A DNA stretch of 64,000 nucleotides from Clostridia bacterium. GTDB taxonomy: Bacteria; Bacillota; Peptococcia; DRI-13; SM3-B62. The DNA lies in assembly GCA_018433675.1 (NCBI GenBank), contig JAHDQS010000045.1, positions 70,356 to 134,355 on the forward strand. The letters are read 5' to 3'. The notes below the pieces were generated by a model, which had not been told where the DNA came from, did not search any database, and worked only from the letters and a program-made list of their open reading frames with translations. Shown piece by piece: positions 1-57,175 of this stretch (position 1 is the stretch's first letter; each line of letters starts with the position of its first letter). Both the position numbers and the translations under genes were made by a program.

Positions 1-1010
1 AGGCAAAGGGGCAGGTGCTGCTGCAGCTTCTGGCGGAAGCGGGAGAGGGTGGGCAGCTTGCTTACGCTTGCGGAGGATTGTTGAGGACCGCTCGTCTGGA
101 AAATCCCAAAATCAACGGGCAAATCATTACGGTGGAGCAATTATCCGGACAGCCGGTAAAGACTGTTGCCCGTCTTTTGCAAAGAGAGGCTGCAGGCTGC
201 AGGGATGGATGCCTGGAGGTATGCTACCGGGGAGAACCCTTGCGACGTTACCGGAAAAAGCTGCGGGAGATAACGGCAAAAGCCGAAAAACGAGCCTCGT
301 GGCTGAAGGAAAACGGGGTTTACCTCATCACCGGCGGTCTAGGGGGATTAGGTCTTTTACTGGCCGGGTATCTGGCCGGTAAGAGCAAGGTCAAACTTGC
401 CTTGTTGGGACGGAAAGAATTAAGTATTAAAACCGAAGAATCGCTCAGGCAATTGAGGAAGAAGGGTGCAGAAGTCCTGTATCGCCAAGTGGATGCAGGT
501 AATAAAGAGGATGTGGTCAAAGTCGTTGAAGATATCAGGAAGACTTTGGGGCCGCTTGCCGGGGTGTTCCACTGCGCCGGGGTGTTAAAGGATAAGGTGA
601 TTATTCAAAAGGGACAGGATGAAATAAAAGAGGTATTCAGACCGAAAGTACACGGTCTGTGGAATTTAGATGAAGCCGTCGGGTCGGAGAAGCTCGACTT
701 TTTTGTGGCCTTTTCTTCCCTTTCGGCTGTGCTGGGAAACCTGGGACAGGCGGATTACGCCGGTGCCAACGCTTTTATGGACAGCTTTGCCGAGCTGCGT
801 CGTCTGAGGGTCGAAAAGGGAGAACGATACGGCAGGACCATGACTGTGAATTGGCCCTTGTGGTCCGCAGGAGGGATGAGGGTCGATTATGAGACAGAGA
901 AAAAGTTTTACCATGATTTGGGATTGAGTCTCTTGCCGACGGTCTTTGGTCTTTGGGCCTTAGAAGCGGTAATGGCTCAAGAAGAAGCCCAGAGTGTGGT
1001 GCTTTACGGA
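1..1010 (+). other. PKS domain KR-a (structural subdomain cut by window edge)
   Basis: LLRTARLENP structural motif; Rossmann GVYLITGGLGGLG (~nt 311); HCAGVLKD; GQADYAGANAF. Confidence 0.85.
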
Positions 1011-24900: not shown

Positions 24901-27900
24901 GCCGGATACCTAAGCGGACAATCGGCCGAGGAAGATGGGGAACAGCCAGGTGCGGCCGTGTCCGTGCCTGCACATGCCACTGCAGACGCGGCAGTGCTCC
25001 CGGCAGGGGAATTGGCGGAAGATGCGGTGGAATATCTCAAAAAGCGACTGTCCGCCGTTATCAAGCTGCCGCCTCACAGGATAGAAGAGAATGCCCCGTT
25101 AGAGAAATATGGGATCGATTCCGTCATGGTCATGCAGCTTACCAACGAACTGGAAAAGACCTTCGGGTCGCTGCCTAAGACCTTGTTTTTTGAGTATCAA
25201 AACCTCCGGGAATTAACAGGGTATTTCCTGGAGGCTCATCGTGTACGGTTATTAGATGCCCTGGGTATGGGAGTGGAAAGGGGAGAGGAGGATAAGCCTG
25301 CTGCTGTGGTGCCTTGGCGCGAGGAGACGCCCCGCCTGGTTTACGAAAGGCCGCGCTTTGCCACGGGGTGGGGGAGGGGCCGGCGGGAGGATACTTCGTT
25401 ATCTTCCGACATTGCCATTATCGGTTTGGCCGGGCGTTATCCCGGGGCCCGTAACTTGCGGGAGTTTTGGCTTAATCTGTCTGAAGGAAAAGACTGTATC
25501 ACAGAGATACCTGCAGAGCGTTGGGATCATAGCAGGTATTTTGATGAAGACAGGAACAAACCGGGTAAGACGTACAGCAAGTGGGGAGGATTTCTGGAGG
25601 GTGTGGATGAGTTTGACCCGCTGTTTTTTAACATTTCTCCCCGGGAAGCCGAAATTATGGAACCCCAGGAACGCCTTTTTCTGGAGTGTGTTTATGAGAC
25701 TTTAGAGGATGCCGGCTATACCAGGGGGTCTCTTGCCTCTTACCGGGGAAGGGACCTGGAGGGCAATATCGGGGTTTATGTGGGAGTCATGTACGAGGAA
25801 TATCAGCTTTATGCGGCTCAGCAGCAGCTTTTGGGCAAACCGGTCACGGTATCCGGGAATCCTTCCTCGGTGGCCAACAGGGTTTCATATTTCTGCAACT
25901 TTCATGGTCCCAGCATGGCGATCGATACCATGTGTTCTTCTTCCATTACTGCCATTCATTTGGCTTGCCGGAGCTTGCAAAACGGGGAATGCCGCCTTGC
26001 TATAGCGGGCGGGGTCAACGTCTCGATTCACCCTAATAAGTATCTTTTCCTTGGTCAGAGTAACTTTGTATCCAGTAAGGGGTTGTGCGAGGCCTTCGGA
26101 GCAGGCGGAGACGGTTATGTGCCGGGTGAAGGCGTGGGTGCCGTGCTGCTAAAACCTTTAAACGAGGCTGTTAAGGACGGTGACCACATTTATGGGATCG
26201 TGAAGGGAACCGCCCTTAATCACGGCGGGAAGACTAACGGCTATTCGGTACCCAACCCCAATGCTCAGGCGGCGGTCATCGGGCAAGCCCTTAAGGGTTC
26301 GGGGGTTAATCCCCGGGCGGTCAGTTACCTGGAGGCTCACGGGACCGGAACTATCTTAGGTGATCCTATCGAAATTGCGGGTCTGAGCAAGGCTTTTCGG
26401 GAGCATACAAAAGATACGCAGTTTTGTGCCATCGGTTCTGTCAAGTCGAATATCGGGCACAGCGAAAGCGCGGCAGGGATTGCCGGGTTGACAAAGGTGC
26501 TTTTGCAGATGAAACACCGCCAATTGGTGCCTTCACTGCATACGGACACCCTTAATCCCAATATCGATTTCGATACCACACCTTTCGTGGTGCAGCAGAA
26601 AAGGGCGGAGTGGAAACCCATAGTAGCGGAGGTTGGCGGGGGTAAGAAGGAATATCCACTGATCGCCGGGGTTTCATCCTTTGGGGCCGGTGGTTCCAAT
26701 GCCCATTTGGTGGTTCAGGAATATATACCCGAAGGGGAAAGAGCTTTACCAGGATTTCTTTCCCGGAAAAGACCGGTGTTGATCGTGCTATCGGCTAAAA
26801 ATGAGGAGCGTCTCAGGGAAAGGGTACTCAGTCTCATCAGTATTTTCCAAGAGGAGGGCTTGGACGAAGATGACCTGGTTAATGTGGCCTATACATTGCA
26901 GGTGGGGCGTGAAGCCATGGAAGAAAGACTGGCGTTGCTGGTGGAATCTGTGGATGAAATGGTTGGGAAGCTACAGGGCTTTCTTTCGCAAAAGAAGGAT
27001 GAGTCCGGGATTTACCGTGGACATATTAGACAAAGTAAGGAAACGATAGCCGTTTTTGCAGCGGACGAGGATATGGAAAAAACCCTTGCGGCCTGGATCG
27101 AGAAGGGAAAGTACGGGAAGCTTGCCAACCTATGGGTTCAGGGCTTGGATATTGATTGGCGGAGGCTCTATACCACCGGTTTACCCCAAAGGGTCAGTTT
27201 GCCCCCTTATCCCTTCGAGCGGGAGCGTTACTGGATACCGGAGAAAGAAGCTTTAGAGGAAGCTTTAGATGCAGGAGTCAGCGGGACAATCAGGAAGACT
27301 TGTTTTTTGCAAAAACAGTGGGAACTCTGTCCTGTTGTTGCCGGTAAGAGCTTTACAGGAAAGGTTGCCATTCTGGCGACAAAAGAGACTCTCAGTCTGG
27401 CAGAAAGGCTGAGGGAATATTTTTCGCCGGGAGTGGTGTTTGAAGAAGAACAGCTTGGGTTGGAAAATGGTGTTTTCCAAGAAGAAGCAGCAGATTGGAA
27501 CGGCTTTATTGACCTGACCGGTTGCGGAAAAGAGGAGCAGGGATCTCTTACCTGGCTTTCCCGGTTGCAGAGGCTGATTGAAAACGGAAAAGACCGAGGA
27601 TTGGTCGTCTTGGGCGTAACCCGGGGATTGGAAGCCTTTTTGCAGACAGAAATCAATCTCGCAGGAGCTTCCCGAGCCGGGCTGTACCGCATGCTGCAAA
27701 GTGAATATGGCCGTCTGAAGTCACGGCATGTGGAGCTGGACCCTGATTCCGCTATTGCCGAAAGTCAATTGGCAGAGCAGATAGCAGCAGAATTTTTTGC
27801 GGCGGGGGACGAAGCGGAGGTATGTTACCGCGACGGCAAACGATATCAAGCTGTTTTACGGGAGATACCGGCAGAAAGGCAGGAAGAGAAAGGTGAGGAG

Positions 27901-30522
27901 AAAGAGGGGTTTGTGGCGGGAGGATTCCCGGCTGAACAGGTTTTATGGATCACCGGCGGGACACGGGGACTTGGATATTTATGTGCCCGGCATTTTGTGG
28001 AGTGTTACGGTGTTAAACGCTTGGTTTTAACAGGACGGGAAGAGCTTCCGCCTCGTAGTGAGTGGGAAGGGTATCTGGAACAGGATGACGGGGTCGGCAA
28101 AAAGCTCAGGAATATTCTTTATCTGGAGGAACAAGGAGTACAGGTCTTGACTCCCCAGGTTTCGCTTACGGATGGCGAAGCTTTCAAAAAGTGTGTACAG
28201 GAAGTTACAAAGGCCCTGGGGCCAATCGGAGGAGTGATTCATTGCGCCGGCAGCAGCGATGCCAAGAATCCGGCTTTTATTCGCAAGCCGCTGCAAGGAC
28301 TAGCAGAGGTGCTGGCGCCGAAGGTCACAGGCATTAATGTTTTATATGAGGCCTTACGAGGGGAGCCCTTGCGGGTTTTCATGGTTTTTTCGTCCGTCGC
28401 CGGTCTTATTCCCACTTTGGGAGTGGGACAGAGCGATTACGCTATGGCCAATGCCTACCTGGATTACTTTGTCCAGGCCAAGGAGGGGGAGTTCCCGCTT
28501 TTGAGCATCCAATGGCCGAGTTGGAAAGAGACGGGGATGGGAGAGGTGAAAACCAGAGCCTTTCAGCAAACGGGGCTGTTGAGTCTGACTGATGAGGAAG
28601 GTTTAAGGCTGATGGATACCATTCTAGCGGCAAAGCTGGGTCCGGTGGTGATGCCGGCGGTGGTGCAAACGGAGTTATGGAAGCCCCAGCGTTTGATGAA
28701 GGCCAGGATCGAACAAGAGCCTGTGGCTGTGACCGGTCCGAGTTATTCGCTGACCGCAAGGGAGAAGAAAGGGGAGGAAGGAGATGCTTTCAGCCGGGTC
28801 CAGGCCTGGCTGGTCGGCTTGTTCTCCCGGGATCTGAAAATTCCTCCTGCCAAACTGGACGTGGATACACCCTTCCAGGAGTATGGGGTTGATTCGATTT
28901 TGCTGGCCCAATTGCTGCGTTCTGTTAATGAAGTGCTCCCGGAGGAAATAGATCCTTCCGTCTTTTATGAGTACTCTACGATCAGGCTTTTGACCTCGTG
29001 GCTGGTGGATAACCACGCCGAAAGCTTCCGGGATGCGGCTGCTTCTGCTGCCCGGGAGGAAGTGGACTCCGAAGTAAGCCGGGCACAACCTCAAGAGGCA
29101 GGTCAGGAGGCACGTTTGGAGTTGCAAGAGAGGGCTTCCGGGGAGGTGACGGTATCTGCGGGCATACCGGCAAGTGACTCTGAGATTGTGGTTGTCGGGA
29201 TGTCCTGCCGCTTTCCGGGAGCAGGTAACCTGGACGAATACTGGCAGCTGTTATCTCAGGGGAAAACAGCCATTCGTCCCGCACCGCCAGGTTGGCGGGA
29301 TTTCTCCAAGGAGTTCTGGGGAGGATTCATCGAAGACGCTACGTATTTTGATCCGGAATTCTTTTTGCTCCCGGAGGAAGACGCGGCGGAAATGGATCCT
29401 CAGGCCTTGTTGGTACTGGAGGAGAGCTTGAAAGCCTGGCATCATGCGGGTTATTCCCTTGCAGAGCTGAAAGGGAGACGTGTCGGGGTCTATTTAGGGG
29501 GCAGGGCACGTTACCAGCCAAGTGAAGCGGGACTGGATAAGACACGTAATCCCATTGTGGTTGTGGGGCAAAACTATCTGGCCGCAAATGTTTCACAATT
29601 CTTTGATCTGCGCGGGCCCAGCCTTGTTGTCGATACGGCGTGTTCTTCCGCTTTGGTAGGAATGCACATGGCACTACAGGCCTTGGTAAGCGGAGAGGTG
29701 GAAGCAGCCTTGGTGGGAGGGGTCAGTCTGTTGCACACGGACAAGACCCACCTGATATTTGAGCAGAGGCGGCTTCTTAATCCTGAGAATCGTTTTCATA
29801 TCTTTGACCGGCGTGCTGCCGGGATTGTGCTGGGGGAAGGGGTAGGCATGGTCGTTGTGAAAACAAAACAGCAAGCCTTGAAGGATAAGGACCGGATTTA
29901 TGCCCGGATCAAGGGGTTGGCCGTCAATAACGACGGGCGTACTGCGGGTCCGGCCACTCCCAATATCCAGGCGCAAAAGGAAGTCATGCTCGCAGCCCTG
30001 GAGAAAAGTAAAAAGAGGCCGGAGGAAATCGCTTATCTTGAGGCAAACGGTTCAGGCAGTGAGGTTACCGATCTGTTGGAATTAAAGGCCATCACCGGCG
30101 TCTATCGTGCGGCAAGCAAAGAACCACTTGCGTTAGGGTCTATTAAGCCAAACATCGGCCATCCTCTTTGTGCCGAGGGGATAGCGGGATTTATCAAGAC
30201 GGTTCTGATGCTGCATCACGGGCGGATGGTTCCCTTTTTATCCGGGCAGGAAGCGATGAAACACTTTGCCCTGGAAGAGACCCCGTTATATTTTTGCCGG
30301 GAGAGCAAAAAGTGGCAAGGTATACCGCGAGTGGCGGCACTCAACTGTTTTGCCGATGGGGGTACTAATGCCCATGTGATTCTACAGGCCCATGACGATT
30401 CGGAGAATAAACGTCCGCACAGGGAGCCCCTTGCACCTTTGACTTTAAAACGCCGTGATGTTCGTTCCACGGGGCAGGGTGGCAGGGAAAGCATCTGGAA
30501 GCGAAAAATTGTGGAGGGATGA
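18940..30522 (+). CDS. trans-AT type I polyketide synthase subunit 2: KR-ACP / KS-DH-KR-ACP0-ACP / KS-KR-ACP / KS0
   Basis: ATG at 18940, 1 nt after the subunit-1 stop (TGAgATG), preceded by AAGGGGGG. The track start at 18853 lies inside the upstream gene. The N-terminus LYKPCWRE matches the KR lead-in of the other modules. Confidence 0.95.
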   Translation: MKRQQETAPLAAVSEKTRVMLYKPCWREGRIKGQGNTAGADFRRLVVFCEPQGLQAEDIAGMIEGTNCLILQSREKEIEKRYQEYALELLREIQSIMGKKDESRVLIQVMISSQGEQRLFGGLSGLLKTAQAESSRLWVQLIMTDDWEKKGVIEMLRENGLSPQDAQVRYRDGKRQVTGWEEVTGAELAESIPWQDKGVYLITGGAGGLGLLFASEIARRVKNPVIVLAGRSSLDKVEKRLAKKFAGLGARIVYRQGDVSQKRETVDLVTGIREEFGSLNGIIHAAGVTRDSLIINKTADQLREVFAAKVEGLLNLETACRGMELDFLVLFSSVAASLGNPGQADYAAANAFLDCYAEYRREPETDEQKQFARIISYNWPLWQEGGMHVSPEAERSMRQKGFVPLGTVGGIKSFYQGWAYGGSLFMVLEGDGLRLKEVMSARAYPRLSDRKGPVSVKPERLLQETLGRLKELFGEITGLSREQIDAQEILESYGIDSVMISKLNSRLESVFREVSKTLFFEGRTLEAVARRLCEDYPEECMAWAHLQGGEEEPGDKELFGDDALEWGEDEEFPVLRPLKAPQMRAEGFEPIAVIGLSGKYPQAENLTEYWENLQAGKDCITEIPSERWSLEGFYLPDQQKAAATGKSYCKWGGFIDGFADFDPLFFNISPREALNMDPQERLFIEHCWQVLEDAGYTRQQLMEEYGGRVGVFAGITKTGFALYGPALWRQGEQAFPRTSFSSLANRVSYLFDLRGPSMPVDTMCSSSSTAIHEACRCLQRGECEIAIAGGVNLYLHPANYNELCVQQMLSPDGRSRAFGAGANGFVPGEGVGCVLLKSLSQAVEDGDNIYAVIKGTAVNHGGKTNGYTVPNPQAQSEVIRAALDNAGVKAREVSYLEAHGTGTRLGDPIEITGAKQAFESDTQERGYCSLGSVKSNIGHLEAAAGIAGLTKIVLQMRYKKLVPSLHAKVLNPNINFAKTPFVVQQEATDWNSKEYPRIAGLSSFGAGGANAHIVLEEYLPAARKHSVPAIDDERPAVIVLSARNKEDLKKRAEGLLSRLKAREYSEADLAALAYTLQVGREAMEERLGMTVVSLQELEEKLQGCLEGEEDKSDLYWGRVEQNKEKLAALATDEVVQENVSRWLENGEYGRLLEMWVRGLNLNWNRLYQGGKPKRLSLPGYPFARERYWLPEIKEGEEKGELVHSSLHPLLHRNTSDLKEQRYTSIFTGKEFFLRDHMVQGRHILPGVAYLEMARAAAELAAGDMQGENSCLKLKNVVWAQPAIVEEGEGLRLHLGLYPTAEGELAYEVYGASVIYSQGTIEIEGEKTRPKMDVAAAKAACSKGMLTGQQCYEIFSQMGIDYGPGHRAIEEVYLGEGVAVAKLVLPSAVKETSDGFVLHPTMMDGALQASLGLVLTAGASAPLVPFALEELEVYAGCVPRMWVLLRRSGSLDIDCCDEEGNVCVRLKGYFSRELKGEGTKTEETMLLEPCWREEDAASSVALSPAAGSENYGQHLVILCEAVKVKPKDVEGLWPGVRCLMLSSRKKDPAVRYGEYVLRVLQEIQGILRQKPKGRVLLQVVIPGHGESRLLAGLAGLLVTAGLENPQLCGQLIELEDWQGLERILRENREKPTAGRIRYREGTRYVAALAEVESFQKMPQSPWREGGRYLITGGAGGLGLLFAAEIARTTRNVTLILTGRSLLDTARENKIKELREAGAQVIYRQLDVIDQKAVENLVHAVVQEFGGLDGIIHSAGVIRDAFILNQSEAESLEVLSPKVNGLVNLDEATQDLKLDFFLLFSSQAAVLGNPGQAVYAAANAFLDSYVEYRNELVAVQERHGATLSVNWALWQEGGMGIEDAAEKIIRENTGMIPLRTSSAFLALYQGMEQGKARLMVMEGSRPLMERWLFGRQESGEYHGRENRRITEDLLVKAAALLQVGVEDLEEDTAWDEHGFDQVTLTKLVGELNREYGLQLSSAVFSSFPTLRSLAGYLSGQSAEEDGEQPGAAVSVPAHATADAAVLPAGELAEDAVEYLKKRLSAVIKLPPHRIEENAPLEKYGIDSVMVMQLTNELEKTFGSLPKTLFFEYQNLRELTGYFLEAHRVRLLDALGMGVERGEEDKPAAVVPWREETPRLVYERPRFATGWGRGRREDTSLSSDIAIIGLAGRYPGARNLREFWLNLSEGKDCITEIPAERWDHSRYFDEDRNKPGKTYSKWGGFLEGVDEFDPLFFNISPREAEIMEPQERLFLECVYETLEDAGYTRGSLASYRGRDLEGNIGVYVGVMYEEYQLYAAQQQLLGKPVTVSGNPSSVANRVSYFCNFHGPSMAIDTMCSSSITAIHLACRSLQNGECRLAIAGGVNVSIHPNKYLFLGQSNFVSSKGLCEAFGAGGDGYVPGEGVGAVLLKPLNEAVKDGDHIYGIVKGTALNHGGKTNGYSVPNPNAQAAVIGQALKGSGVNPRAVSYLEAHGTGTILGDPIEIAGLSKAFREHTKDTQFCAIGSVKSNIGHSESAAGIAGLTKVLLQMKHRQLVPSLHTDTLNPNIDFDTTPFVVQQKRAEWKPIVAEVGGGKKEYPLIAGVSSFGAGGSNAHLVVQEYIPEGERALPGFLSRKRPVLIVLSAKNEERLRERVLSLISIFQEEGLDEDDLVNVAYTLQVGREAMEERLALLVESVDEMVGKLQGFLSQKKDESGIYRGHIRQSKETIAVFAADEDMEKTLAAWIEKGKYGKLANLWVQGLDIDWRRLYTTGLPQRVSLPPYPFERERYWIPEKEALEEALDAGVSGTIRKTCFLQKQWELCPVVAGKSFTGKVAILATKETLSLAERLREYFSPGVVFEEEQLGLENGVFQEEAADWNGFIDLTGCGKEEQGSLTWLSRLQRLIENGKDRGLVVLGVTRGLEAFLQTEINLAGASRAGLYRMLQSEYGRLKSRHVELDPDSAIAESQLAEQIAAEFFAAGDEAEVCYRDGKRYQAVLREIPAERQEEKGEEKEGFVAGGFPAEQVLWITGGTRGLGYLCARHFVECYGVKRLVLTGREELPPRSEWEGYLEQDDGVGKKLRNILYLEEQGVQVLTPQVSLTDGEAFKKCVQEVTKALGPIGGVIHCAGSSDAKNPAFIRKPLQGLAEVLAPKVTGINVLYEALRGEPLRVFMVFSSVAGLIPTLGVGQSDYAMANAYLDYFVQAKEGEFPLLSIQWPSWKETGMGEVKTRAFQQTGLLSLTDEEGLRLMDTILAAKLGPVVMPAVVQTELWKPQRLMKARIEQEPVAVTGPSYSLTAREKKGEEGDAFSRVQAWLVGLFSRDLKIPPAKLDVDTPFQEYGVDSILLAQLLRSVNEVLPEEIDPSVFYEYSTIRLLTSWLVDNHAESFRDAAASAAREEVDSEVSRAQPQEAGQEARLELQERASGEVTVSAGIPASDSEIVVVGMSCRFPGAGNLDEYWQLLSQGKTAIRPAPPGWRDFSKEFWGGFIEDATYFDPEFFLLPEEDAAEMDPQALLVLEESLKAWHHAGYSLAELKGRRVGVYLGGRARYQPSEAGLDKTRNPIVVVGQNYLAANVSQFFDLRGPSLVVDTACSSALVGMHMALQALVSGEVEAALVGGVSLLHTDKTHLIFEQRRLLNPENRFHIFDRRAAGIVLGEGVGMVVVKTKQQALKDKDRIYARIKGLAVNNDGRTAGPATPNIQAQKEVMLAALEKSKKRPEEIAYLEANGSGSEVTDLLELKAITGVYRAASKEPLALGSIKPNIGHPLCAEGIAGFIKTVLMLHHGRMVPFLSGQEAMKHFALEETPLYFCRESKKWQGIPRVAALNCFADGGTNAHVILQAHDDSENKRPHREPLAPLTLKRRDVRSTGQGGRESIWKRKIVEG
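19246..20235 (+). other. PKS domain KR4 (completes the module split across subunits 1 and 2)
   Basis: LLKTAQAESS; KGVYLITGGAGGLG; HAAGVTRD; GQADYAAANAF. Confidence 0.9.
20320..20550 (+). other. PKS domain ACP4
   Basis: LESYGIDSVMISKL (Ser codon 20428-20430). Confidence 0.9.
20710..21993 (+). other. PKS domain KS5 (elongating)
   Basis: DTMCSSSS (Cys codon 21229-21231); EAHGTGTRLGDP; SNIGHLE. Confidence 0.9.
22555..23360 (+). other. PKS domain DH5
   Basis: LRDHMVQGRHILPG (His codon 22645-22647); YGPGHRA; LHPTMMDGALQ. Confidence 0.9.
23652..24632 (+). other. PKS domain KR5
   Basis: LLVTAGLENP; GGRYLITGGAGGLG; HSAGVIRD; GQAVYAAANAF. Confidence 0.9.
24706..24920 (+). other. PKS degenerate carrier domain (ACP0; phosphopantetheinyl Ser replaced by Gln)
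   Basis: Carrier-protein-like segment LLQVGVEDLEEDTAWDEHGFDQVTLTKLVGEL...LRSLAGYL. Gln codon 24802-24804 sits where the other ACPs have the DS Ser. Confidence 0.7.
25024..25240 (+). other. PKS domain ACP5
   Basis: LEKYGIDSVMVMQL (Ser codon 25120-25122). Confidence 0.9.
25411..26724 (+). other. PKS domain KS6 (elongating)
   Basis: DTMCSSSI (Cys codon 25933-25935); EAHGTGTILGDP; SNIGHSE. Confidence 0.9.
27300..28665 (+). other. PKS domain KR6 (no DH in this module)
   Basis: VLWITGGTRGLG (~nt 27940); GQSDYAMANAY. Reads HCAGSSDAKNP where the other six KRs have the xRD/LKD motif. Confidence 0.85.
28795..29015 (+). other. PKS domain ACP6
   Basis: FQEYGVDSILLAQL (Ser codon 28894-28896). Confidence 0.9.
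29185..30393 (+). other. PKS domain KS7 = KS0 (non-elongating)
   Basis: DTACSSAL (Cys codon 29641-29643) and PNIGHPL are retained. EAHGTGT is replaced by EANGSGS (Asn codon 30046-30048). No flanking LPTYPF region; the protein ends ~40 aa later. Confidence 0.85.
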
Positions 30523-30523
30523 A

Positions 30524-31330
30524 ATGGAGGAGAAATATCTTATCGGCATTGATAACCCAATCGTGAAGAACCATCAGGTCTACGGAAACTGTGTGCTGCC
30601 TGGTTTGGCCTATATCGATATGGTGTACCAGCTGTTTCGTGAGCAGGGCTATGACCATACCCGTCTGGAGCTGCGCAATCTTTCGATTTTCAATCCCTTG
30701 ATAGCGAGTAAGGACAAGGAGGTGACCCTCCATGTGCGCTGTGAAGAGGTTGCAAGCGGGAGATGGCGGATAGTCATGGAGGGAGGGGAGGACAACAAGC
30801 GGTATGCCACTGCCGAAATGCTGCAAACGGCACCGGTGGTCTTCGCAAAGGAGCCTGTGGCCCTTGATTGGGCAAAACAAGAGAACAAGAAGGCAAAAGA
30901 GGTTCTTGATTTGGAGGCGGCCTATGAATTCTGCCGTGAGCTTGAACTGCTGCATACAGGTTTCATGAAGGCGAAGGGTAAGGTTTACGGTACCGCTACT
31001 GAAATATGGGTCGATATTTCCCCGGGAGATGAATCCCGGGCCGTTAAGGAAGCTTTCATGTTTCATCCGGTCTTGCTCGACGGTGCCGCTATCGGCACGT
31101 GGGGGCTTCTTGCTACCCGTTTAGGGAAAAAACGGCAGCTAAGCCTGCCGCTTTTCTACGAGTCTTTTAAAGCAACTGGTTTGCTGCAGGAAAGTTGCTT
31201 TGTCAGGATTAAGTCTTCTTCCCTGCGGGAGAAAAAGGAACTCTCTTATCTGAGCATGGAGTTTTTCGATACAACGGGAAGAAAGGTTGCCGAACTGTTA
31301 AATTTCGCCGGTAAGGCGGTCAAAGAGCCC
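30524..31330 (+). other. PKS domain DH6 (divergent DH-like, directly after KS0)
   Basis: VKNHQVYGNCVLPG (His codon 30572-30574); FHPVLLDGAAIG (Asp kept, Gln absent); no YGP motif. Confidence 0.75.
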
Positions 31331-33895
31331 GGGCAGCTTGGACAGGTTGAGACCGAAAGGCCGCGAGCCGCCGAAGTAGAGACATTTTTACGGCAGTTGT
31401 TGGCAGAGAGGATGAGGATCCCGGCGGAGAAAATCAATACACAGGTGGGGTACTACGAGATGGGGCTGGATTCTACCGGCCTGTTAGGGCTGGTGGAGGA
31501 ACTGACCGCAAAAATTGGGGTTGACTTATCTCCTACCCTGTTGTTTGAGTATACGACCATAGCCGAACTGGCGGCCTATTTGAGTGAACATCATTCTGTA
31601 GGTTTTGCCTCCGGAGCCTCTGCCGGTTTGGAAGATGTCGATGAATCATCTGGGCCAAGAGAGAAAGGGGATATTGCCATTATTGGGATGGCGGGGCGTT
31701 ATCCTCAGGCCGGGAACCTTTGGGAGTATTGGGAGAACTTATGCGGGGGGAAGGAGTGTATTACGGAAATTCCCTCCTCCCGTTGGGAAAGGCAAGAGAT
31801 GGAAGGGCTTGAATCCCCGACCGGGAAGAGGATTTCCCAATGGGGCGGCTTTATCGATGATGTGGATTGTTTTGATGCGGAGTTTTTCCGGATTTCGCCG
31901 CGTCATGCGGAGGTCTTCGATCCCCAGGAACGGCTCTTTTTGGAGACCTGTTGGGAAGCCGTAGAGGATGCCGGTTATACCCCGGCCACATTGACCCCGC
32001 TCCGGAAGAACCGGAAGGGTCGGAAGGTAGGGGTTTTTGCCGGTGTAATGCACAGTGATTATCTGTTGTTGAGTGCCGAGGCGGCAGCTAAAGGCAGTTT
32101 TTTTCCCCTGCCCTTAAGCAGCGCCTCTATTTCCAACCGTACTTCCTACTTTTTCGACTTTTGCGGGCCGAGTATTACCCTGGATACGATGTGTTCTTCG
32201 TCGTTGACTGCCGTACACTTGGCAGCGGGTAGTATCAGGTGCGGGGAGTGTGAAGTGGCTTTGGCGGGAGGTGTCAATTTATCGCTCCATCCGTATAAAT
32301 ATATGTCTTACGGTTTGTTGGACATGTACAGTGATAAACCCCATTGTCATGCCTTCGGCAGTGAGGGAGACGGCTATATTTCAGCGGAGGGAGTGGGGGT
32401 GGTTGTCCTCAAACCCCTGGCAAAGGCCGTTGAGGACGGGGACAACATTTACGCGGTGATTAAGGGTAGTGCAATCAATCACGGGGGGACAACCAGCGGC
32501 TTTACGGTGCCAAATCCGGCCGCCCAGGCTGAACTGATTATCTCTTGTCTGGAGGAGGCGGGAATTAATCCCCGGACAATCAGTTACGTGGAGGCTGCCG
32601 CCGTAGGCTCCGCCCTGGGAGACCCGATTGAGGTGGCGGCCCTAACAAAAGCTTTTCGTCGGTACACTGCGGATAGGCAGTATTGTGCCATAGGTTCCGT
32701 TAAGTCCAATATCGGGCACGCGGAATCGGCTGCGGGGATCTCCCAGCTGATGAAGGCCGTCTTGCAAATACGGTACGGAGAACTGCTGCCTAGTATCAAC
32801 GCCGAGCCCTTAAACCCGGAAATAGATTTTACAAAGACCCCTTTTTATCTCCAAAAGGAAAAGAGGAGTTGGGAACGCCCGGAGGTAAATATCGACGGAG
32901 AGAAGCGAGTGTATCCCAGGCGTGGGGCTGTAAATTCTTTTGGGGCGGGGGGTTCTAATGTTCATATGATTATTGAGGAGCATCTTTTGTCAGACGAACC
33001 GTTGGCTGAAAAAGAGCTTTCCGCTGGGGCGGCAGGGGCTCAGGTTGTCATACTTTCAGCGAAAAACCCTTCGCGTTTGCAGGCGGTGGCACAGGGGTTG
33101 CTGGAGTTTCTGGAGTCAAGGAAAGGACAGGGCGGAATATCCCTGCAGGATTTAGCTTATACCTTTCAGGTGGGAAGGGTTGCCTGGGAATCACGCCTGG
33201 CCATGGTGGTCGCAAACCAAGAGGAGCTGGTTCAGGGGTTGAAGGTCTTTCTGGCGGGAGAAAAAGGAGCCAAGAACGTATTTGTTTCCGTTAAAGAAAA
33301 CGAAAATGCGGTAGGAGGAAAGAACACGGGGAAAAGCGGATCGGCAAAGAAACCTTCGGCAGCAGACGACCTTATGGGAGTTGCGGCGTACTGGGCGCAG
33401 GGGGGAGAAGTTGATTGGAAGACGCTGCACAAAGGGGCACGAGTCAAAAGGATTTCTTTGCCCACATATCCTTTTGAGCGTAAGCGTTATTGGGTTTCCC
33501 GCCAGAATGATGAGGAGGCGGTGGAAGGTTCACGGGAAGGTGGCTTGCAAGAATATCTTGTTCGGTTCTTGCAGCAGGAGCTTCGCCTCGCCGAGGGAGG
33601 AGTCGATTTAGACAGGAACCTGCAGGAGTATGGGGTGGATTCGATTATTACCATGAAGCTTTTGCGCAGTCTGGAAAAGGAGTATCGCTTTAAAGCCCCG
33701 CTGCGATCGGTGTTGGAACACCCGACGATTTCCTCGTTGGCTGAACACCTGATGTCATTAAAGACGGAAGCGGAGAGGGCAGTAACGAAAAAGACTGGAA
33801 TTGAAGAGGAAAACGGATATTTGGAAAAATTCAAGCAGGGGCTGTTGACCCTTGAGGAGATAGATGAATTGATTGAAAAAGGAGAGATAGTATGA
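30524..33895 (+). CDS. trans-AT type I polyketide synthase subunit 3: DH-ACP / KS0-ACP plus a short C-terminal helical tail
   Basis: ATG at 30524, 1 nt after the subunit-2 stop (GGAGGGATGAaATG). The track start at 30455 lies inside the upstream gene. Confidence 0.95.
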   Translation: MEEKYLIGIDNPIVKNHQVYGNCVLPGLAYIDMVYQLFREQGYDHTRLELRNLSIFNPLIASKDKEVTLHVRCEEVASGRWRIVMEGGEDNKRYATAEMLQTAPVVFAKEPVALDWAKQENKKAKEVLDLEAAYEFCRELELLHTGFMKAKGKVYGTATEIWVDISPGDESRAVKEAFMFHPVLLDGAAIGTWGLLATRLGKKRQLSLPLFYESFKATGLLQESCFVRIKSSSLREKKELSYLSMEFFDTTGRKVAELLNFAGKAVKEPGQLGQVETERPRAAEVETFLRQLLAERMRIPAEKINTQVGYYEMGLDSTGLLGLVEELTAKIGVDLSPTLLFEYTTIAELAAYLSEHHSVGFASGASAGLEDVDESSGPREKGDIAIIGMAGRYPQAGNLWEYWENLCGGKECITEIPSSRWERQEMEGLESPTGKRISQWGGFIDDVDCFDAEFFRISPRHAEVFDPQERLFLETCWEAVEDAGYTPATLTPLRKNRKGRKVGVFAGVMHSDYLLLSAEAAAKGSFFPLPLSSASISNRTSYFFDFCGPSITLDTMCSSSLTAVHLAAGSIRCGECEVALAGGVNLSLHPYKYMSYGLLDMYSDKPHCHAFGSEGDGYISAEGVGVVVLKPLAKAVEDGDNIYAVIKGSAINHGGTTSGFTVPNPAAQAELIISCLEEAGINPRTISYVEAAAVGSALGDPIEVAALTKAFRRYTADRQYCAIGSVKSNIGHAESAAGISQLMKAVLQIRYGELLPSINAEPLNPEIDFTKTPFYLQKEKRSWERPEVNIDGEKRVYPRRGAVNSFGAGGSNVHMIIEEHLLSDEPLAEKELSAGAAGAQVVILSAKNPSRLQAVAQGLLEFLESRKGQGGISLQDLAYTFQVGRVAWESRLAMVVANQEELVQGLKVFLAGEKGAKNVFVSVKENENAVGGKNTGKSGSAKKPSAADDLMGVAAYWAQGGEVDWKTLHKGARVKRISLPTYPFERKRYWVSRQNDEEAVEGSREGGLQEYLVRFLQQELRLAEGGVDLDRNLQEYGVDSIITMKLLRSLEKEYRFKAPLRSVLEHPTISSLAEHLMSLKTEAERAVTKKTGIEEENGYLEKFKQGLLTLEEIDELIEKGEIV
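31375..31595 (+). other. PKS domain ACP7
   Basis: YYEMGLDSTGLLGL (Ser codon 31472-31474). Confidence 0.85.
31673..32983 (+). other. PKS domain KS8 = KS0 (non-elongating)
   Basis: DTMCSSSL (Cys codon 32192-32194) and SNIGHAE are retained. EAHGTGT is replaced by EAAAVGS (Ala codon 32597-32599). Confidence 0.85.
33545..33765 (+). other. PKS domain ACP8 (terminal)
   Basis: LQEYGVDSIITMKL (Ser codon 33641-33643). Followed by a 43-aa charged tail, ...GLLTLEEIDELIEKGEIV. Confidence 0.85.
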
Positions 33896-35154
33896 CAGGG
33901 GAAAAATCAAATCCGTTGAGTTTTTTGCTTCGCTCTTTCCAATACAGGAACTATCGCCTGTATTTTGGGGGACAGAGTGTTTCACAGATAGGGACCTGGA
34001 TTCAGACTATTGCGCTAAGCTGGCTGGTTTACAGTTTGACCGGCTCTGCTTTGTATTTGGGAATCGTGGGTTTTATCGGGCAGATCCCAATTTTGGTGTT
34101 ATCGTTTTTAACCGGGGTTTTGATGGACAGGTGGAATCGCCATCGCACCTTTATCGCCACCCAGGTTTTGACGATGATACTGGCTTTCGTGCTGTCCGCA
34201 TTAGTGTTGACCGGAAGGATAGAGGTTTGGCACATTATTGTTTTAAGCTTGTTAAACGGCTTGGTGGCTTCTTTTGAATTAACATCCAGTCAAACGTTTT
34301 TGTACCATATTATCGAGAAGAAGGAGGACATTGGTAATGCCATTGCCCTCAACTCTATGCTGGTCAACCTGGCACGTATGCTGGGACCTTCTATAGCAGG
34401 TATTCTGATTGCCAGTATAGGAGAGGGACTGTGCTTCTTTGTCAACGGTGCGAGCTATCTTCCCGTTATTGCGGCCTTGCTTCTCATGAGGGTTAAGCCT
34501 CAGCCGCCTGCCGCTTCTAAACGAAATATTTTAAAGGGGCTGCAGGAAGGGATTAACTACGCCTGTGGCTCTACTCCCATCATCTCCATCATACTGCTTC
34601 AGTCTCTGATTAGCCTGATTGGGATGCCCTTTCAGGTGCTGATGCCGGTTTTTGTTCAGGAGATTTTAAATGGCGGACCTCACGCCCTCGGTTTCATCAT
34701 GGGATGTTCCGGCGTAGGGGCTATTGTCGCCACCCTTTATCTGGCCACACGGCGGGATCCTTTCGGTCTGGTTAAATTAGTACCCGTGGCCGCCGCTATT
34801 CTGGGTGCGGGTTTGATTGCTTCTTCTTTGTCGCGTCTTACGGTGTTGTCGATGTTTTTTGCCTTGTTTACCGGCTTTGGCGCTATTCTTTTAATGGCGG
34901 TGAATAATACGGTTTTGCAGACAATAGTCGCTGACGATAAAAGGGCTCGGGTCATGAGCTTATATACTATTTCTTTTTTAGGTATTTATCCCTTTGGAAA
35001 TTTGTTGGCAGGGGGTTTGGCCAATTTAATCGGTGTACCGAACGAGTTCATGTTGAGCGGAATTTGCTGTTTGGTAGGGTCGCTGGTTTTTGCCAGCAGG
35101 TTAGGGGCTATCAAAGCCGGTATCAAGCGGCCCTCCCAGCAGGTATCTTCTTGA
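33892..35154 (+). CDS. MFS transporter (MFS_3 / EntS-like exporter family)
   Basis: Start overlaps the PKS stop (ATGA at 33892-33895); RBS AAGGAGAG. Multi-TM protein, FRNYRLYFGGQSVSQIGTW...MDRWNRH, typical of the enterobactin-exporter-like MFS family. Confidence 0.85.
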   Translation: MTGEKSNPLSFLLRSFQYRNYRLYFGGQSVSQIGTWIQTIALSWLVYSLTGSALYLGIVGFIGQIPILVLSFLTGVLMDRWNRHRTFIATQVLTMILAFVLSALVLTGRIEVWHIIVLSLLNGLVASFELTSSQTFLYHIIEKKEDIGNAIALNSMLVNLARMLGPSIAGILIASIGEGLCFFVNGASYLPVIAALLLMRVKPQPPAASKRNILKGLQEGINYACGSTPIISIILLQSLISLIGMPFQVLMPVFVQEILNGGPHALGFIMGCSGVGAIVATLYLATRRDPFGLVKLVPVAAAILGAGLIASSLSRLTVLSMFFALFTGFGAILLMAVNNTVLQTIVADDKRARVMSLYTISFLGIYPFGNLLAGGLANLIGVPNEFMLSGICCLVGSLVFASRLGAIKAGIKRPSQQVSS

Positions 35155-35183: not shown

Positions 35184-37265
35184 GTGGGTGAAAGGATCGA
35201 TTTAAAGGATAAGGTGGAGGAAGGATTACAGGACGAGGATTCGCGTCGGGGGCGTTTGAAGGCATTGAGCGTTATTAAACCAGGGATAGTGAGAATGGCA
35301 ACCCTGGAGCCTGAGTTAAGGGACAGGTTGCGGGAAATCAAAGAGAGTTCACTGGCTGATCTTCCAAGGTTGCTGGATGAGGCTGTTTGCTCGTTAAGAG
35401 AAAACGGCTGCCGGGTGCTGGTTGCCGATTCCCATGAAGAGGCCGTCCAATATATAAAGGGTATTGTCCGGCAGGGCTTGGTAGTCAAGTCTAAAACAAA
35501 TGCTGGGCAGGAGATAGGAATCTCCAGGCATCTTAAGGAACAAGGAGCAGAGGTCATCGAGACGGATCTGGGGGATCGTATCAATCAGTTGGCGGAAAGC
35601 GGTGCCAGTCATTCCCTGGCTCCCGCCATCCATATCCCGATTGAGAAGGTAGCCGAGCTTTTTGTCTCAGAAACGGGTGAGAAGTTGGAGTGCAATACAC
35701 AAGTTCTGGTGGGAGCGGCTCGGAAGAGCTTGCGGGGCTACCTGGAACGGGCGGATGTGGGTATAACCGGGGCGAACGCGATTGCTGCCGAAACCGGCTC
35801 GATCCTGCTGACGGAGAACGAGGGTAATATCAGGGCAGTGAGCGGGATGCCTCCGGTACATATTGTGATCGCCGGGGTGGAGAAAATCGTGCCAAGCCTG
35901 GACGATGCTCTTGTGGTAGCCAGGGCGGCGGCAGTTTATGGCTTGGGTCAGGACATCGGCACCTATGTCTCCGTTATTTCCGGAACCGGACGCTGCGGCG
36001 GAAGTACCCAGCAAGAGGCGGCAGGAGGCTTGGGGACCCGGGAAGTGCATGTGGTATTGCTGCGGCAAGGCCGGGAAAAAGCAATTAGAGACGGCTTTGC
36101 CCCAGCCCTTTATTGCATCAATTGCGGAAGTTGTTTGAATTTCTGTCCCGTGTACACCGAAATAGGGGAGAAGTTCGGCTATAAGTATCTGGGAGGGCGG
36201 GGAGCGGTCTTTGCAGCCTTTCATGATCAACTGCAAAAAGCGGAGGAGGCGGGGCTGGATCTTTGTCTTGGGTGTGGGAGATGTCAGGAGGTCTGCCCTG
36301 CCGGGATCAACATTGCCGAGATGGTGATGCGGCTTAAGGCAAAGGTGGTTGAAGAAAACGGGCTAAAGCCAACAGACCGTTTTTTTGTCTCGTTATTGAC
36401 GGAGGAAGAACTTCGGCACAAAATCAAGACGGCACGTGGTATTTTGAAAAAAGCGGGGTCCAAAGACCGCCTGTTTCCTGAGAGTGCTAAAGGGCGCAGC
36501 TCTGTGAAAAACCCTGTTTTGAGGGTTTCTTTTTTTGCCGGTTGCGGGGTTAATTTTCTCCGACCGCGGCTCGGAGTGGCCTTGCTGGATGTTCTCGCGG
36601 CGCAAAACGTTGAGGTTGTACGGCATGAGAATGAAGCCTGCTGCGGCATGCCCCTGTTAAAGAACGGAGCCGTGCAGGAGGCTTTAACTTTGGTAAAGCG
36701 GAATATTGCCTTGCTGGCGAAGGACGATAGTGATTACCTCTTGTTTGTGTGCCCAGCCTGTGCGGCTGCCGTGAAAAATGAATGGCCCCTCTTAGCCGAG
36801 AGAGAAGGGGCCGGTTTAACAAAACAGGCCCGGGGTTTGGCAGATAAGGTGATGGATGTCAACCGGTTTTTGACCGAGGTATTGGCCTTTAGAGGAGAGT
36901 GGCCGGACGGGGAGAGCAAGGTGACCTACCATGATCCCTGTTATCTTGCCAGGGGTCTGGGGGTGAGAGAAGAACCCCGCAAGCTTTTGCAGGCCATCAA
37001 GGGCCTAGAGCTGGTGGAAATGTCGGAACCTGACAGTTGCTGCGGTTTGGCCTCGAGTTTCAGTTTGGACTATTACAACCTGTCAAAAAGGATCGGGCTG
37101 AGGAAGGCGGAGATGATTGAAAGAACCGGAGCGGATTTTGTGGCGACAAGCTGTCCGGGCTGTATGATTCATTTAGCGAACGGGCTGCATCATCTTGCAA
37201 GGGGCAAGAGGGTGTTTCATACAATCGAATTGGCTGCTGCCGCCATGAAAGGAGGAAGCAAGTGA
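35184..37265 (+). CDS. LUD-domain / 4Fe-4S / CCG-domain oxidoreductase (LutB-LutA-like fusion)
   Basis: GTG start after GGGGAGAGGTGAG. LUD (DUF162)-like N-terminal half. Two ferredoxin motifs, CINCGSCLNFCP and CLGCGRCQEVCP. C-terminal half has two CCG motifs (EACCGMP, DSCCGLA), as in LutA/GlpC/HdrD. Confidence 0.8.
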   Translation: MGERIDLKDKVEEGLQDEDSRRGRLKALSVIKPGIVRMATLEPELRDRLREIKESSLADLPRLLDEAVCSLRENGCRVLVADSHEEAVQYIKGIVRQGLVVKSKTNAGQEIGISRHLKEQGAEVIETDLGDRINQLAESGASHSLAPAIHIPIEKVAELFVSETGEKLECNTQVLVGAARKSLRGYLERADVGITGANAIAAETGSILLTENEGNIRAVSGMPPVHIVIAGVEKIVPSLDDALVVARAAAVYGLGQDIGTYVSVISGTGRCGGSTQQEAAGGLGTREVHVVLLRQGREKAIRDGFAPALYCINCGSCLNFCPVYTEIGEKFGYKYLGGRGAVFAAFHDQLQKAEEAGLDLCLGCGRCQEVCPAGINIAEMVMRLKAKVVEENGLKPTDRFFVSLLTEEELRHKIKTARGILKKAGSKDRLFPESAKGRSSVKNPVLRVSFFAGCGVNFLRPRLGVALLDVLAAQNVEVVRHENEACCGMPLLKNGAVQEALTLVKRNIALLAKDDSDYLLFVCPACAAAVKNEWPLLAEREGAGLTKQARGLADKVMDVNRFLTEVLAFRGEWPDGESKVTYHDPCYLARGLGVREEPRKLLQAIKGLELVEMSEPDSCCGLASSFSLDYYNLSKRIGLRKAEMIERTGADFVATSCPGCMIHLANGLHHLARGKRVFHTIELAAAAMKGGSK

Positions 37266-38257
37266 AGAAAGCGAAGAAAAAGGAATTGGCCGAGTTGCGT
37301 GAAGAAGATATCAAGAGGCTGCCGGAGCTGATTGAGTTGGCCACCAAAACTTTGCAGGCCAAGGGATGCCGGGTCTATGATGCCGCTGATACCGCCCAGG
37401 CCCGGGGAATTATCGGAGAACTGCTGGTAGGACAAAAGAGAGTCGTGCGTTCTTTTAGCCAGACCCTGTACGAGATAGGCTTCGATGGACTGATGAAAGA
37501 AAAGGGAATCGAAGTAGAAAAGACGAGTACCGCTGAAATATTGTGGTCCGAAGAAGGAAGACATCCGGACGGGCTGCCTCCTTTCCCTGTCGTTGACAGA
37601 GAAAGCGCGTCTTTGTCCGAATCGGAACTGCCGTTCGCTGAAAGGGTCAGGGAGCGAGTGAAGGAGAGTGAGTACGGTATTACAGGTATTAACAGTATTG
37701 CGGCAGAAAGAGGTACTTTGGTTCTGGCAGAAAACGAAGGAAACGGCAGAACAGTCTCGAATCTTCCTTACCACCACGTGGTAGTAGCCGGTGTGGATAA
37801 GATAACAGCTTCCCTGACAGGGGCTGTGGATGTTGTTTGCTGTGCTTCCGAGCACGGTCAAAACCGTAAAGTTCCGGTTTATATTTCTTTGATTTCAGGG
37901 CCGAGCCGCACGGGGGATATAGAGTTTCGTCTTACTTACGGGATGCACGGTCCGAAAGAGGTACATGTCATCTTGCTGGATAACGGCAGGCAAGAGTTGT
38001 GCCGGCAAGGATACGGCTATTTGCTGAAATGCATTGATTGTGGGTCTTGTTGTGAGCAGTGCCGGGAAATGGCTCTTGCTAACGGATGGTCCGGCATTAC
38101 CCTGACTATGAAAGGGCTAGCCCTGGCCTTGATTGGCGGGAGAATTGCTCCTCCCGTTTTGCAAAATAGACTGGGGAATTTTTCCTGCCAGGTGGGAATC
38201 ACGCCGAAAATGGCTGCAGAGGCATTGAAAGGGCTAAACACAGTAAAATCCTTTTAG
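37262..38257 (+). CDS. LUD-domain protein (LutC-like) with C-terminal Cys cluster
   Basis: GTGA start/stop overlap with the upstream gene. ITGINSIAAERGTLVLAENEGNGR parallels ITGANAIAAETGSILLTENEGNIR in the upstream protein. CIDCGSCCEQC near the C-terminus. Confidence 0.75.
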   Translation: MKKAKKKELAELREEDIKRLPELIELATKTLQAKGCRVYDAADTAQARGIIGELLVGQKRVVRSFSQTLYEIGFDGLMKEKGIEVEKTSTAEILWSEEGRHPDGLPPFPVVDRESASLSESELPFAERVRERVKESEYGITGINSIAAERGTLVLAENEGNGRTVSNLPYHHVVVAGVDKITASLTGAVDVVCCASEHGQNRKVPVYISLISGPSRTGDIEFRLTYGMHGPKEVHVILLDNGRQELCRQGYGYLLKCIDCGSCCEQCREMALANGWSGITLTMKGLALALIGGRIAPPVLQNRLGNFSCQVGITPKMAAEALKGLNTVKSF

Positions 38258-57083: not shown

Positions 57084-57128
57084 GTCCGGGTACCTGAAAT
57101 AACTTGGTTTTATGAAAGGACGGACATA

Positions 57129-57137
57129 TGGTATAAT
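57129..57137 (+). promoter_or_regulatory. extended -10 promoter element (TGGTATAAT) upstream of the MNT/HepT pair
   Basis: TGnTATAAT about 40 nt upstream of the MNT start. Confidence 0.4.
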
Positions 57138-57175
57138 AAGTTTGGATTTTATAAGAATGCTTGGGAGGGGTAATT

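Follow-up and report, generated by a model that had tools for sequence, protein, structure and literature searches.

A KS0-ACP module with a helical tail at the 3' end of a Clostridia trans-AT PKS/NRPS cluster is probably an internal hand-over to an NRPS subunit encoded upstream

In bacillaene biosynthesis, the polyketide synthase (PKS) subunits PksJ-L-M-N-R form the established core assembly line, and PksN is a hybrid of nonribosomal peptide synthetase (NRPS) and PKS (PMC6199538). More broadly, modules that consist of a non-elongating ketosynthase (KS0) and an acyl carrier protein (ACP) are ubiquitous in trans-acyltransferase (trans-AT) PKSs; in the ptx cluster, for example, NRPS modules 12 and 13 come after the KS0-ACP module 11 (PMC5764310). 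We analyzed a KS0-ACP module from a Clostridia bacterium (assembly GCA_018433675.1, contig JAHDQS010000045.1, positions 70,356 to 134,355; this stretch of 64,000 nucleotides is "the window"). The window holds the 3' two-thirds of a trans-AT PKS locus, which is an orphan cluster from a spore-forming lineage of Bacillota. The module lies at the end of the last megasynthase gene, ORF3, and is followed by a short tail. The original prediction, made from the sequence alone, was that the assembly line ends in this KS0-ACP. Given that the tail is conserved as a probable element for docking, and that a partner for it (P0249) is encoded in the same cluster, we consider it quite probable that the module is instead an internal PKS-to-NRPS hand-over of a bacillaene-like trans-AT PKS/NRPS. 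A hand-over like this is of the PksM to PksN kind, an ordinary type of junction in trans-AT hybrids that is rarely annotated as such.

According to Pfam and seed-based mapping, ORF3 has the domains DH(2-234)-ACP(288-353)-KS0(383-760), a KS flanking subdomain, ACP(1011-1075), and the tail. Its ATG lies one base past the stop codon of ORF2 (stop 30522, start 30524), and the protein is identical to the gene called on Logan contig SRR13787005_1063. In the KS0, EAAAVGS (amino acids 690-696) stands where EAHGTGT is expected, so that Ala692 (codon GCC, 32597-32599) is at the position of the HGTGT histidine. The active-site Cys557 (DTMCSSS, first base 32192) and the second histidine, His732 (SNIGH, first base 32717), are kept. 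Because the HGTGT histidine is lost, this KS is not expected to carry out decarboxylative condensation; from these motifs and the described behavior of KS0s (PMC8456789), it is presumably a non-elongating transacylase, whose cysteine would still accept the chain and pass it on without extension. Homologs of ORF3 have EAAANGS, EASANGS, EATNGS, or similar motifs at this position. Both the histidine substitution and the tail are kept in 20 full-length homologs, at 40-88% identity, so their occurrence in ORF3 is not due to chance. The catalytic residues of the DH domain, His17 (30572-30574) and Asp186 (31079-31081), are invariant in the 20 homologs.

The sequence details in the original description of this module are correct, including the KS substitution, the normal KS flanking region, and the position of the ACP serine. 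It was also correct that no release domain follows: Pfam identifies no thioesterase (TE), reductase, or condensation (C) domain in ORF3 (neither PF00975 nor any other hydrolase domain), and there are no PKS or NRPS genes among the open reading frames from the end of ORF3 to position 64000. As had been noted, the next gene, for a transporter of the major facilitator superfamily (MFS), overlaps the stop codon of ORF3 (ATGA, with the ATG at 33892).

The tail is short and charged, as predicted: the 48 residues after the terminal ACP (LMSLKTEAER...LIEKGEIV) include 12 acidic and 7 basic residues. In an AlphaFold2 model from a 20-sequence alignment, the linker is disordered (predicted local distance difference test, pLDDT, below 50 at 1089-1096), and it is followed by two helices (1095-1104 and 1110-1118) of modest pLDDT, about 50-70. 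At this pLDDT, the last 3-4 residues of the tails, which are hydrophobic (EIV, GVI, GIVA), could still form a strand.

ORF3 belongs to a family of stand-alone DH-ACP-KS0-ACP proteins of about 1140-1230 amino acids, with about 40% identity at full coverage, from Methylomusa, Flavivirga, Trinickia, Chitinophaga, and metagenomes. (The homology searches gave no protein beyond about 1.75 times the length of the query: the maxima were 1400, 1965, and 4635 amino acids for queries of 800, 1123, and 2650 amino acids.) Its orthologs include P0122 (87% identity) and P0125 (54% identity), which is from a metagenome-assembled genome (MAG) of Peptococcaceae. Some of the homologs end in a cis TE, and all of the others end in the tail motif LExFKxGxL(S/T)xEEIxxLIxxG. 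This motif is C-terminal in 36 of 368 fetched proteins, and PksM of B. subtilis is among them. An exhaustive search of 1.84 billion representatives gave 21 proteins, among the 150 matches listed, whose match reaches the tail, and 19 of these stop no more than 15 amino acids past the match. The tail of P0125 (LEKFKQGLLTLEEIEELIDKGEIIK) is nearly identical to that of ORF3 (LEKFKQGLLTLEEIDELIEKGEIV), though the proteins are just 54% identical overall. Judging by these comparisons, the tail is conserved beyond the background of the protein. ORF3 also fits a generalized form of the motif, phi-xx-phi(E/Q)x(F/V)xxGx-phi(S/T/D)phi-xx-phi-xx-phi(I/L), located after the last ACP at the C-terminus of a subunit.

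To see what accompanies the tail, we compared 79 loci from a genome-contig scan (best match 56-60% identity), as well as other fetched loci. In four distant loci (L085 from Methylomusa, L087 from a JGI contig, L088 from Trinickia, and L089 from GCA_023265095), the tail gene is directly followed by a gene whose product starts with condensation, AMP-binding, PCP, and KS domains. The partner proteins have an N-terminal dock motif, M..(E/D)(I/L)LxAY(K/R)xGK(I/L)(S/T)xxE(V/L), about 33 residues before the C1 core motif. Across all fetched loci, 17 subunits, P0249 among them, have the dock motif at their start and a C domain after it. For 15 of the 16 others, the product of the open reading frame just upstream has the tail motif at its end. 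These 15 loci include the Bacillus pks loci (L011, L022, L023, and L024), where we identified the pair as the PksM to PksN junction, as well as loci from Brevibacillus, Hazenella, Paenibacillus, Pelosinus, and SAR324. Overall, the docking pair spans Bacillota, Pseudomonadota, Bacteroidota, and SAR324. We found no structural description of such a tail/dock pair for ACP-to-C transfer in the searchable literature.

Two of the fetched loci have unusual arrangements. Besides P0249, the only dock-C subunit without an adjacent upstream tail gene is from an uncultured Veillonellaceae MAG (L007 2777; CAWDTA010000003.1), whose 377-kb contig also encodes an ORF3-like protein (P0123) that ends in the KS flanking subdomain and has no tail. 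The cluster in Trinickia sp. (JBFLUK010000011.1) starts with the tail gene, and the genes ahead of it are divergent and belong to type III secretion, so the KS0-ending subunit that acts before the tail protein must have its gene at another place. Non-collinear order around a DH-ACP-KS0-ACP-tail module is thus seen a second time.

The part of the cluster that is upstream of the window was read by walking up Logan contig SRR13787005_1063, which matches the window at every base over 23 kb. The walk reached P0230, then P0249, and then its surroundings. (We refer to this upstream stretch as L082; its position x is window position x - 30642.) P0249 is encoded ahead of all the other megasynthase genes, about 50 kb upstream of the tail. 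From Met14 (L082 10040), it reads MTRQELLLAYREGKISAQEVRRAL, which is the dock motif; this motif is absent from every other protein encoded between the phosphopantetheinyl transferase (PPTase) gene and the MFS gene. The dock and C region of P0249 is 40-45% identical to five of the partner subunits, as compared to 24% for an ordinary NRPS C domain. More broadly, P0249 is collinear with seven partner subunits, including PksN, at 43-49% identity over about 1700-2300 amino acids. For example, it is 48% identical to PksN from B. atrophaeus over 1714 amino acids. The 13 C domains from the fetched loci that are nearest to that of P0249 (about 42-46% identity) are all of the dock type (11 were classified by a script and two by eye), while C domains of the cis AL-ACP-C types are below them, at 38-42% identity. 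On the donor side, helix II of ORF3's terminal ACP (DSIITMKLLRSLEKEY) resembles those of ACPs that feed the C-domain clade of P0249, such as the ACP of PksJ and the ACPs at the ends of tail-family proteins.

The original prediction had raised the possibility that the tail is a docking element for another megasynthase subunit, and the dock motif of P0249 and the pairing in other loci support this. It had also suggested looking upstream for a docking partner or a free-standing TE, and had stated that a downstream-acting subunit with a matching dock, together with an upstream TE, would make the module internal. The docking element is there, at the N-terminus of P0249, but the TE is not: the only candidate is a discrete alpha/beta-hydrolase of 271 amino acids.

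The comparison to bacillaene supports this picture. Like ORF3, PksM is a trans-AT subunit that ends in an ACP and a two-helix tail (...IIGLMQEVALGKLDFKSVQNIIEGSKSYES), and like P0249, PksN starts with a dock (MNHKEILDA(F/Y)RSGELTITEVEE) that is followed by C-A-PCP-KS. Both assembly lines have dehydrating bimodules and both build polyenes. There are also differences. The Bacillus genes for PksM and PksN are adjacent and collinear, while the partner is far upstream of the tail here. In the region that we examined, the cluster lacks the cis TE of bacillaene and its cassette with hydroxymethylglutaryl-CoA synthase (for beta-branching), and the AL and ACP components are free-standing instead of fused as in PksJ.

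If ORF3 hands over to P0249, then the chain could move as follows. The last elongating module of ORF2 (KS-x-KR-ACP) would build a beta-hydroxyacyl chain. The terminal KS0 of ORF2, with Cys-Asn-His, would then transfer the chain to the next subunit, onto the DH-ACP of ORF3, for dehydration. The KS0 of ORF3, with Cys-Ala-His, would transacylate the chain onto the terminal ACP, without extension, and the two-helix tail of this ACP would dock to the short two-helix element at the N-terminus of P0249. Finally, the C domain of P0249 would attach an amino acid to the polyketide, and two further PKS modules would extend the chain. Because the partner subunit is encoded first, the gene order would not be collinear with biosynthesis, which is another possibility that the original prediction had raised.

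The early steps of this path are similar to described systems. Type A dehydrating bimodules with a Cys-Asn-His KS0 are known (PMC8456789). An alignment of all of the KS domains showed two KS0s in succession, with EANGSGS (Cys-Asn-His) in the last KS of ORF2 and EAAAVGS in ORF3. We assign the last part of ORF2, together with the first part of ORF3, as a split type A dehydrating bimodule, KS-KR-ACP-KS0//DH-ACP, because the domain order, the split after the KS0, the Cys-Asn-His KS0, and the histidine and aspartate of the DH all match. The type A bimodules of hangtaimycin, gladiolin, bacillaene, and difficidin share the domain order, the split, and the Cys-Asn-His KS0; the bimodule here differs in that a second KS0-ACP unit comes immediately after it. 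Elsewhere in the cluster, P0230//ORF1 (L082 23980-29091, then L082 29199 onward and window 15-2600) has the order KS-KR-ACP-KS // DH-ACP-KR and is thereby a type B dehydrating bimodule as defined in PMC8456789.

Several observations weigh against an internal hand-over. P0249 is the first megasynthase gene and ORF3 the last, and an exporter gene comes after ORF3, as it also does after the 54% ortholog. In contrast to the other paired loci, the tail gene and the dock-C gene are not adjacent: the neighbor upstream of P0249 is a methyltransferase gene, and that downstream of ORF3 is the MFS gene. The margin by which the C domain of P0249 is nearer to dock types than to cis types is modest (about 42-46% vs. 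38-42%), and if we consider the whole of C-A-PCP, P0249 is slightly nearer to the PksJ type (about 50% vs. 44-46%). Covariation between tail and dock is only suggestive. Also, accepting the step from ORF3 to P0249 closes the junctions into a circle, P0249-KS0//ACP86//KS-P0230//ORF1//ORF2//ORF3//P0249, where ACP86 is a free-standing ACP of 86 amino acids. (The other junctions in the circle are KS//DH-ACP-KR from P0230 to ORF1, DH//KR-ACP from ORF1 to ORF2, and KS0//DH-ACP from ORF2 to ORF3.) If the circle is closed, then one apparently good junction around the free ACP cannot be chain transfer.

The position of ORF3 ahead of the exporter would also be expected if its KS0-ACP-tail were the true last module. 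In this case, the 271-amino-acid hydrolase would release the chain in trans, and the tail would recruit the hydrolase or be a relic. This enzyme, a free-standing serine hydrolase with the motif GHSMG, has its gene beside that of the trans-AT, and its relatives with known structures include enzymes that cleave esters or thioesters, such as methylketone synthase 1. Furthermore, there are homologs with the same DH-ACP-KS0-ACP unit that end in a cis TE, from Chitinophaga (P0211/P0214), Ruminiclostridium papyrosolvens (P0218/P0243), and Brevibacillus laterosporus (P0254/P0256), and these are 41-43% identical to ORF3 over its whole length. But the proteins with a TE after the ACP lack the tail, while ORF3 has the tail and lacks the TE. 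In the other loci, the tail pairs with a dock-C subunit in 15 of 16 cases and never with a hydrolase. The N-terminus of the hydrolase (MKLEILSCLPQGK...) does not have the dock motif, and if the hydrolase released the chain from ORF3, then the partner motif of P0249 would have no function. We consider release from ORF3 to be improbable.

Enacyloxin biosynthesis offers another precedent. There, a KS0 (Bamb_5919) passes the chain to the last carrier, and an appendage of this carrier (Bamb_5917, PCP with a short linear motif, or SLiM) recruits a C domain (Bamb_5915, a beta-hairpin docking domain, or betaHD, fused to C), as we propose for ORF3 (PMC9113145, PMC13324335). In formal terms, this is the logic of enacyloxin (a KS0, then a carrier that docks through a C-terminal tail to a C domain), so the C domain of P0249 might act only as a release catalyst, onto a free nucleophile, after dual transacylation. 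However, the C domain of enacyloxin is a stand-alone off-loader, while that of P0249 is part of a full elongation module: it is fused to A-PCP-KS-KR-ACP-MT-ACP-KS-MT-ACP-KS0, as in PksN of bacillaene. No stand-alone C domain is encoded between the PPTase gene and the LUD genes; the only C domain there is the one in P0249. The docking elements differ as well, with a SLiM and a betaHD of alpha-beta-beta-alpha-alpha structure in enacyloxin and a two-helix tail and a 33-residue helical N-terminal element here. This alternative seems very remote to us. (The terminal KS0 of P0249 and the free ACP86 also resemble enacyloxin's KS0 and stand-alone carrier.)

We also considered SLiM-betaHD docking for the ORF3 and P0249 pair itself and rejected it. 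A betaHD domain has about 50-60 amino acids and folds as alpha-beta-beta-alpha-alpha, and P0249 has only about 33 residues before the C1 motif, which look like a helix-turn-helix. This N-terminus is quite unlike the classical betaHD N-termini in L058, L072, and L074, and Pfam's TubC_N has no match in P0249 at E <= 0.01. The SLiM of such pairs is a disordered stretch of under 15 amino acids that contributes a beta-strand; the ORF3 tail is modeled as two helices at the modest pLDDT given above, with a hydrophobic end that could still form a strand. Going by their descriptions, the tail and dock can be likened to the four-helix-bundle (4HB) docking domains of virginiamycin (VirA/VirFG) and macrolactin, which are short alpha-helical elements on both partners (PMC11221535). 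The tail and the dock resemble each other, as both fit phi-phi-xx(F/Y)(K/R)xGx-phi(S/T)xxE-phi-xxxL, so it is plausible that together they form a four-helix arrangement like that of the 4HB class.

Because the module in ORF3 is internal under our preferred reading, release is a question for the C-terminal end of P0249 rather than for 31673-33895. None of the six carrier or megasynthase proteins (P0249, ACP86, P0230, and ORF1-3) has a TE, a reductase, or a terminal C domain. Since the junctions form a circle and the cluster has no release domain, the break must lie at ACP86. P0249 ends in a KS0 with EANANGM, and ACP86 follows. This KS0 is 58-62% identical to KS0s of the tail family (P0188, P0172, and P0217) and 56-61% identical to those of the TE-terminated P0211 and P0218, and it is nearer to these KS0s than ORF3's own KS0 is. 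This favors an exit by way of KS0//ACP86//trans hydrolase. On the other hand, ACP86 falls in families of carriers that are loaded by ligases (AsbD, DltC, and AmcB), which, with a ligase encoded nearby, favors ACP86 as a loading carrier; its similarity to any class of ACP is weak (22-26% identity). The relatives of the hydrolase in the Protein Data Bank (PDB) are SABP2, methylketone synthase 1, polyneuridine aldehyde esterase, and chain 3qit_A (deposited as "Polyketide synthase"), which we take to be the TE of CurM. In other words, they are methyl-esterases and thioester-cleaving enzymes, and the hydrolase and the BioC-like methyltransferase could equally serve in a cycle of methyl-ester protection and deprotection.

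Taking these together, we tentatively place the exit at the KS0 of P0249, ACP86, and the hydrolase, with somewhat more doubt than belief. The line likely starts with the truncated AMP-ligase, the free ACP86, or both, feeding the first KS of P0230. Release from ACP86 by the hydrolase may possibly include decarboxylation, which would make it a split, hydrolytic variant of enacyloxin's exit from KS0 to carrier. It is doubtful that all of the following hold at once: transfer from the KS0 of P0249 to ACP86, release of a beta-keto-alpha-methyl chain by the SABP2- and methylketone-synthase-like hydrolase, and a widespread but structurally undescribed class of two-helix docking for ACP-to-C transfer in trans-AT systems. 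Among the fetched loci, the only other cases of a KS0 followed by a small free ACP involve unrelated ACPs from Paenibacillus, and the nearest P0249-like locus that we examined among the fetched genome-contig loci, from a Pelosinus MAG (L004), is not collinear past the NRPS-KS unit.

Alternatively, the circle might be real, with a line that re-enters itself (so that it is iterative or oligomerizing) or a free ACP that both loads and off-loads. Every subunit end does have a matching partner, the cluster has no domain that would break the circle, and both the KS0 of P0249, with its similarity to KS0s of the tail family and the TE-terminated proteins, and ACP86, with its resemblance to the partners of stand-alone ligases (AsbD and DltC), could be seen this way. 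But the likeness of ACP86 to those carriers is weak, and for self-re-entry, the specificity of the KS would have to tolerate two chain lengths. We know of no precedent for a line that re-enters itself, and we give this idea very little credence.

Table. Features of the cluster in order. Positions are in the window, or in the upstream stretch where L082 is indicated.
Feature	Position	Strand	Remarks
Metallophosphoesterase	upstream of window		listed first in cluster order
PPTase	upstream of window		after metallophosphoesterase
AT-AT-ER protein	upstream of window		1084 aa; after PPTase
Alpha/beta-hydrolase	within L082 7232-9989		271 aa; GHSMG motif; beside trans-AT gene
AMP-ligase	within L082 7232-9989		394 aa; without C-terminal subdomain
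BioC-like S-adenosylmethionine (SAM) methyltransferase	within L082 7232-9989		precedes P0249
P0249	gene start L082 10001		4552 aa; C-A-PCP-KS-KR-ACP-MT-ACP-KS-MT-ACP-KS0; about 20.6 kb upstream of window base 1
ACP86, free-standing ACP	upstream of window		86 aa; after P0249
P0230	L082 23980-29091		KS-KR-ACP-KS; upstream of window, after ACP86
ORF1	1..18938	+	6793 aa at full length; left part cut by window edge; N-terminus from L082 29199
ORF2	18940..30522	+	3860 aa; KR-ACP-KS-DH-KR-ACP-ACP-KS-x-KR-ACP-KS0
Last KS of ORF2, KS0	29182..30522	+	aa 3415-3769, plus 91-aa C-terminal extension without flanking subdomain
ORF3 (P0121)	30524..33895	+	1123 aa; DH-ACP-KS0-flank-ACP-tail
DH domain of ORF3	30527..31225	+	
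First ACP of ORF3	31385..31582	+	GLDST; Ser codon 31472-31474
KS0 of ORF3	31670..32803	+	identified by motifs
KS flanking (linker) subdomain and linker to ACP	32804..33544	+	Pfam KAsynt_C_assoc, RhiE-like_linker, CurL-like_PKS_C
Terminal ACP of ORF3	33545..33784	+	GVDSI; Ser1040 = TCG 33641-33643
C-terminal docking tail	33806..33892	+	NGYLEKFKQG-LLT-LEEIDELIEKGEIV; two-helix element after disordered linker
MFS_3 (EntS-like) exporter	33892..35154	+	Pfam MFS_3, MFS_1
Two LUD-domain genes	35184..38257	+	one LutB/LdhH-like with Fe-S and CCG domains, the other LUD only

Within the window, the domains of ORF1 are ...KR-KS-DH-KR-ACP-KS-DH-KR-MT-ACP-KS-DH-KR-ACP-KS-DH, and its N-terminal DH-ACP-KR falls outside. 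The roughly 93 residues between a KR and the next KS of ORF1 (amino acids 772-863 of the full-length protein) gave no signal for an ACP with Pfam or phmmer. An exact look-up of ORF2 found no identical protein on record. The hydrolase, AMP-ligase, and methyltransferase are an unusual trio of accessory proteins, which could provide a methyl-ester protected starter (the logic of BioC/BioH) or a hydrolytic, decarboxylative release.

The MFS gene and the two LUD genes trail the tail gene both here and in the 54%-identical cluster of the Peptococcaceae MAG (L083 7491-12038; L083/L084). The flanking housekeeping genes differ, with tig-clpP-clpX-lon here and mraZ and dcw genes in the MAG. Because the LUD genes have kept their synteny with the PKS and MFS genes while the housekeeping flanks differ, they may belong to the biosynthetic cluster. 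Beyond 38257, the translated open reading frames resemble housekeeping genes (by eye, with no scan of a family library). At 56316-57788, an open reading frame of 255 amino acids is followed by an overlapping pair of small ones (100 and 118 amino acids); from the translations, and by eye, the pair looks like a toxin-antitoxin module of the nucleotidyltransferase/HEPN type. Beyond the upstream side of the cluster, we found unrelated Pfam families (ACT, LGT, Germane/GerM-type, and NusG). The G+C content falls from 52-55% across the PKS genes (window 1-38000) to 43-47% in the adjoining region (38000-64000), which suggests that the cluster was acquired horizontally.

We consider the locus to be mildly interesting for its non-collinear order, which alters the predicted product; for the cluster-wide lack of a TE; and for a docking pair that is very widespread. 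A KS0-ACP that ends the last PKS gene of a cluster should not be taken to mark where the assembly line stops. The tail motif and the dock motif of the C-domain subunit provide a simple sequence rule for the order of subunits in non-collinear trans-AT PKS/NRPS clusters, and the pair is a candidate for a portable connector at engineered PKS-to-NRPS junctions. For this cluster, the naive reading of the gene order would give a polyene acid that is primed with an amino acid. If ORF3 hands over to P0249, then the predicted product would instead be a polyene acyl chain, followed by an amino acid and then by two C-methylated ketide units.

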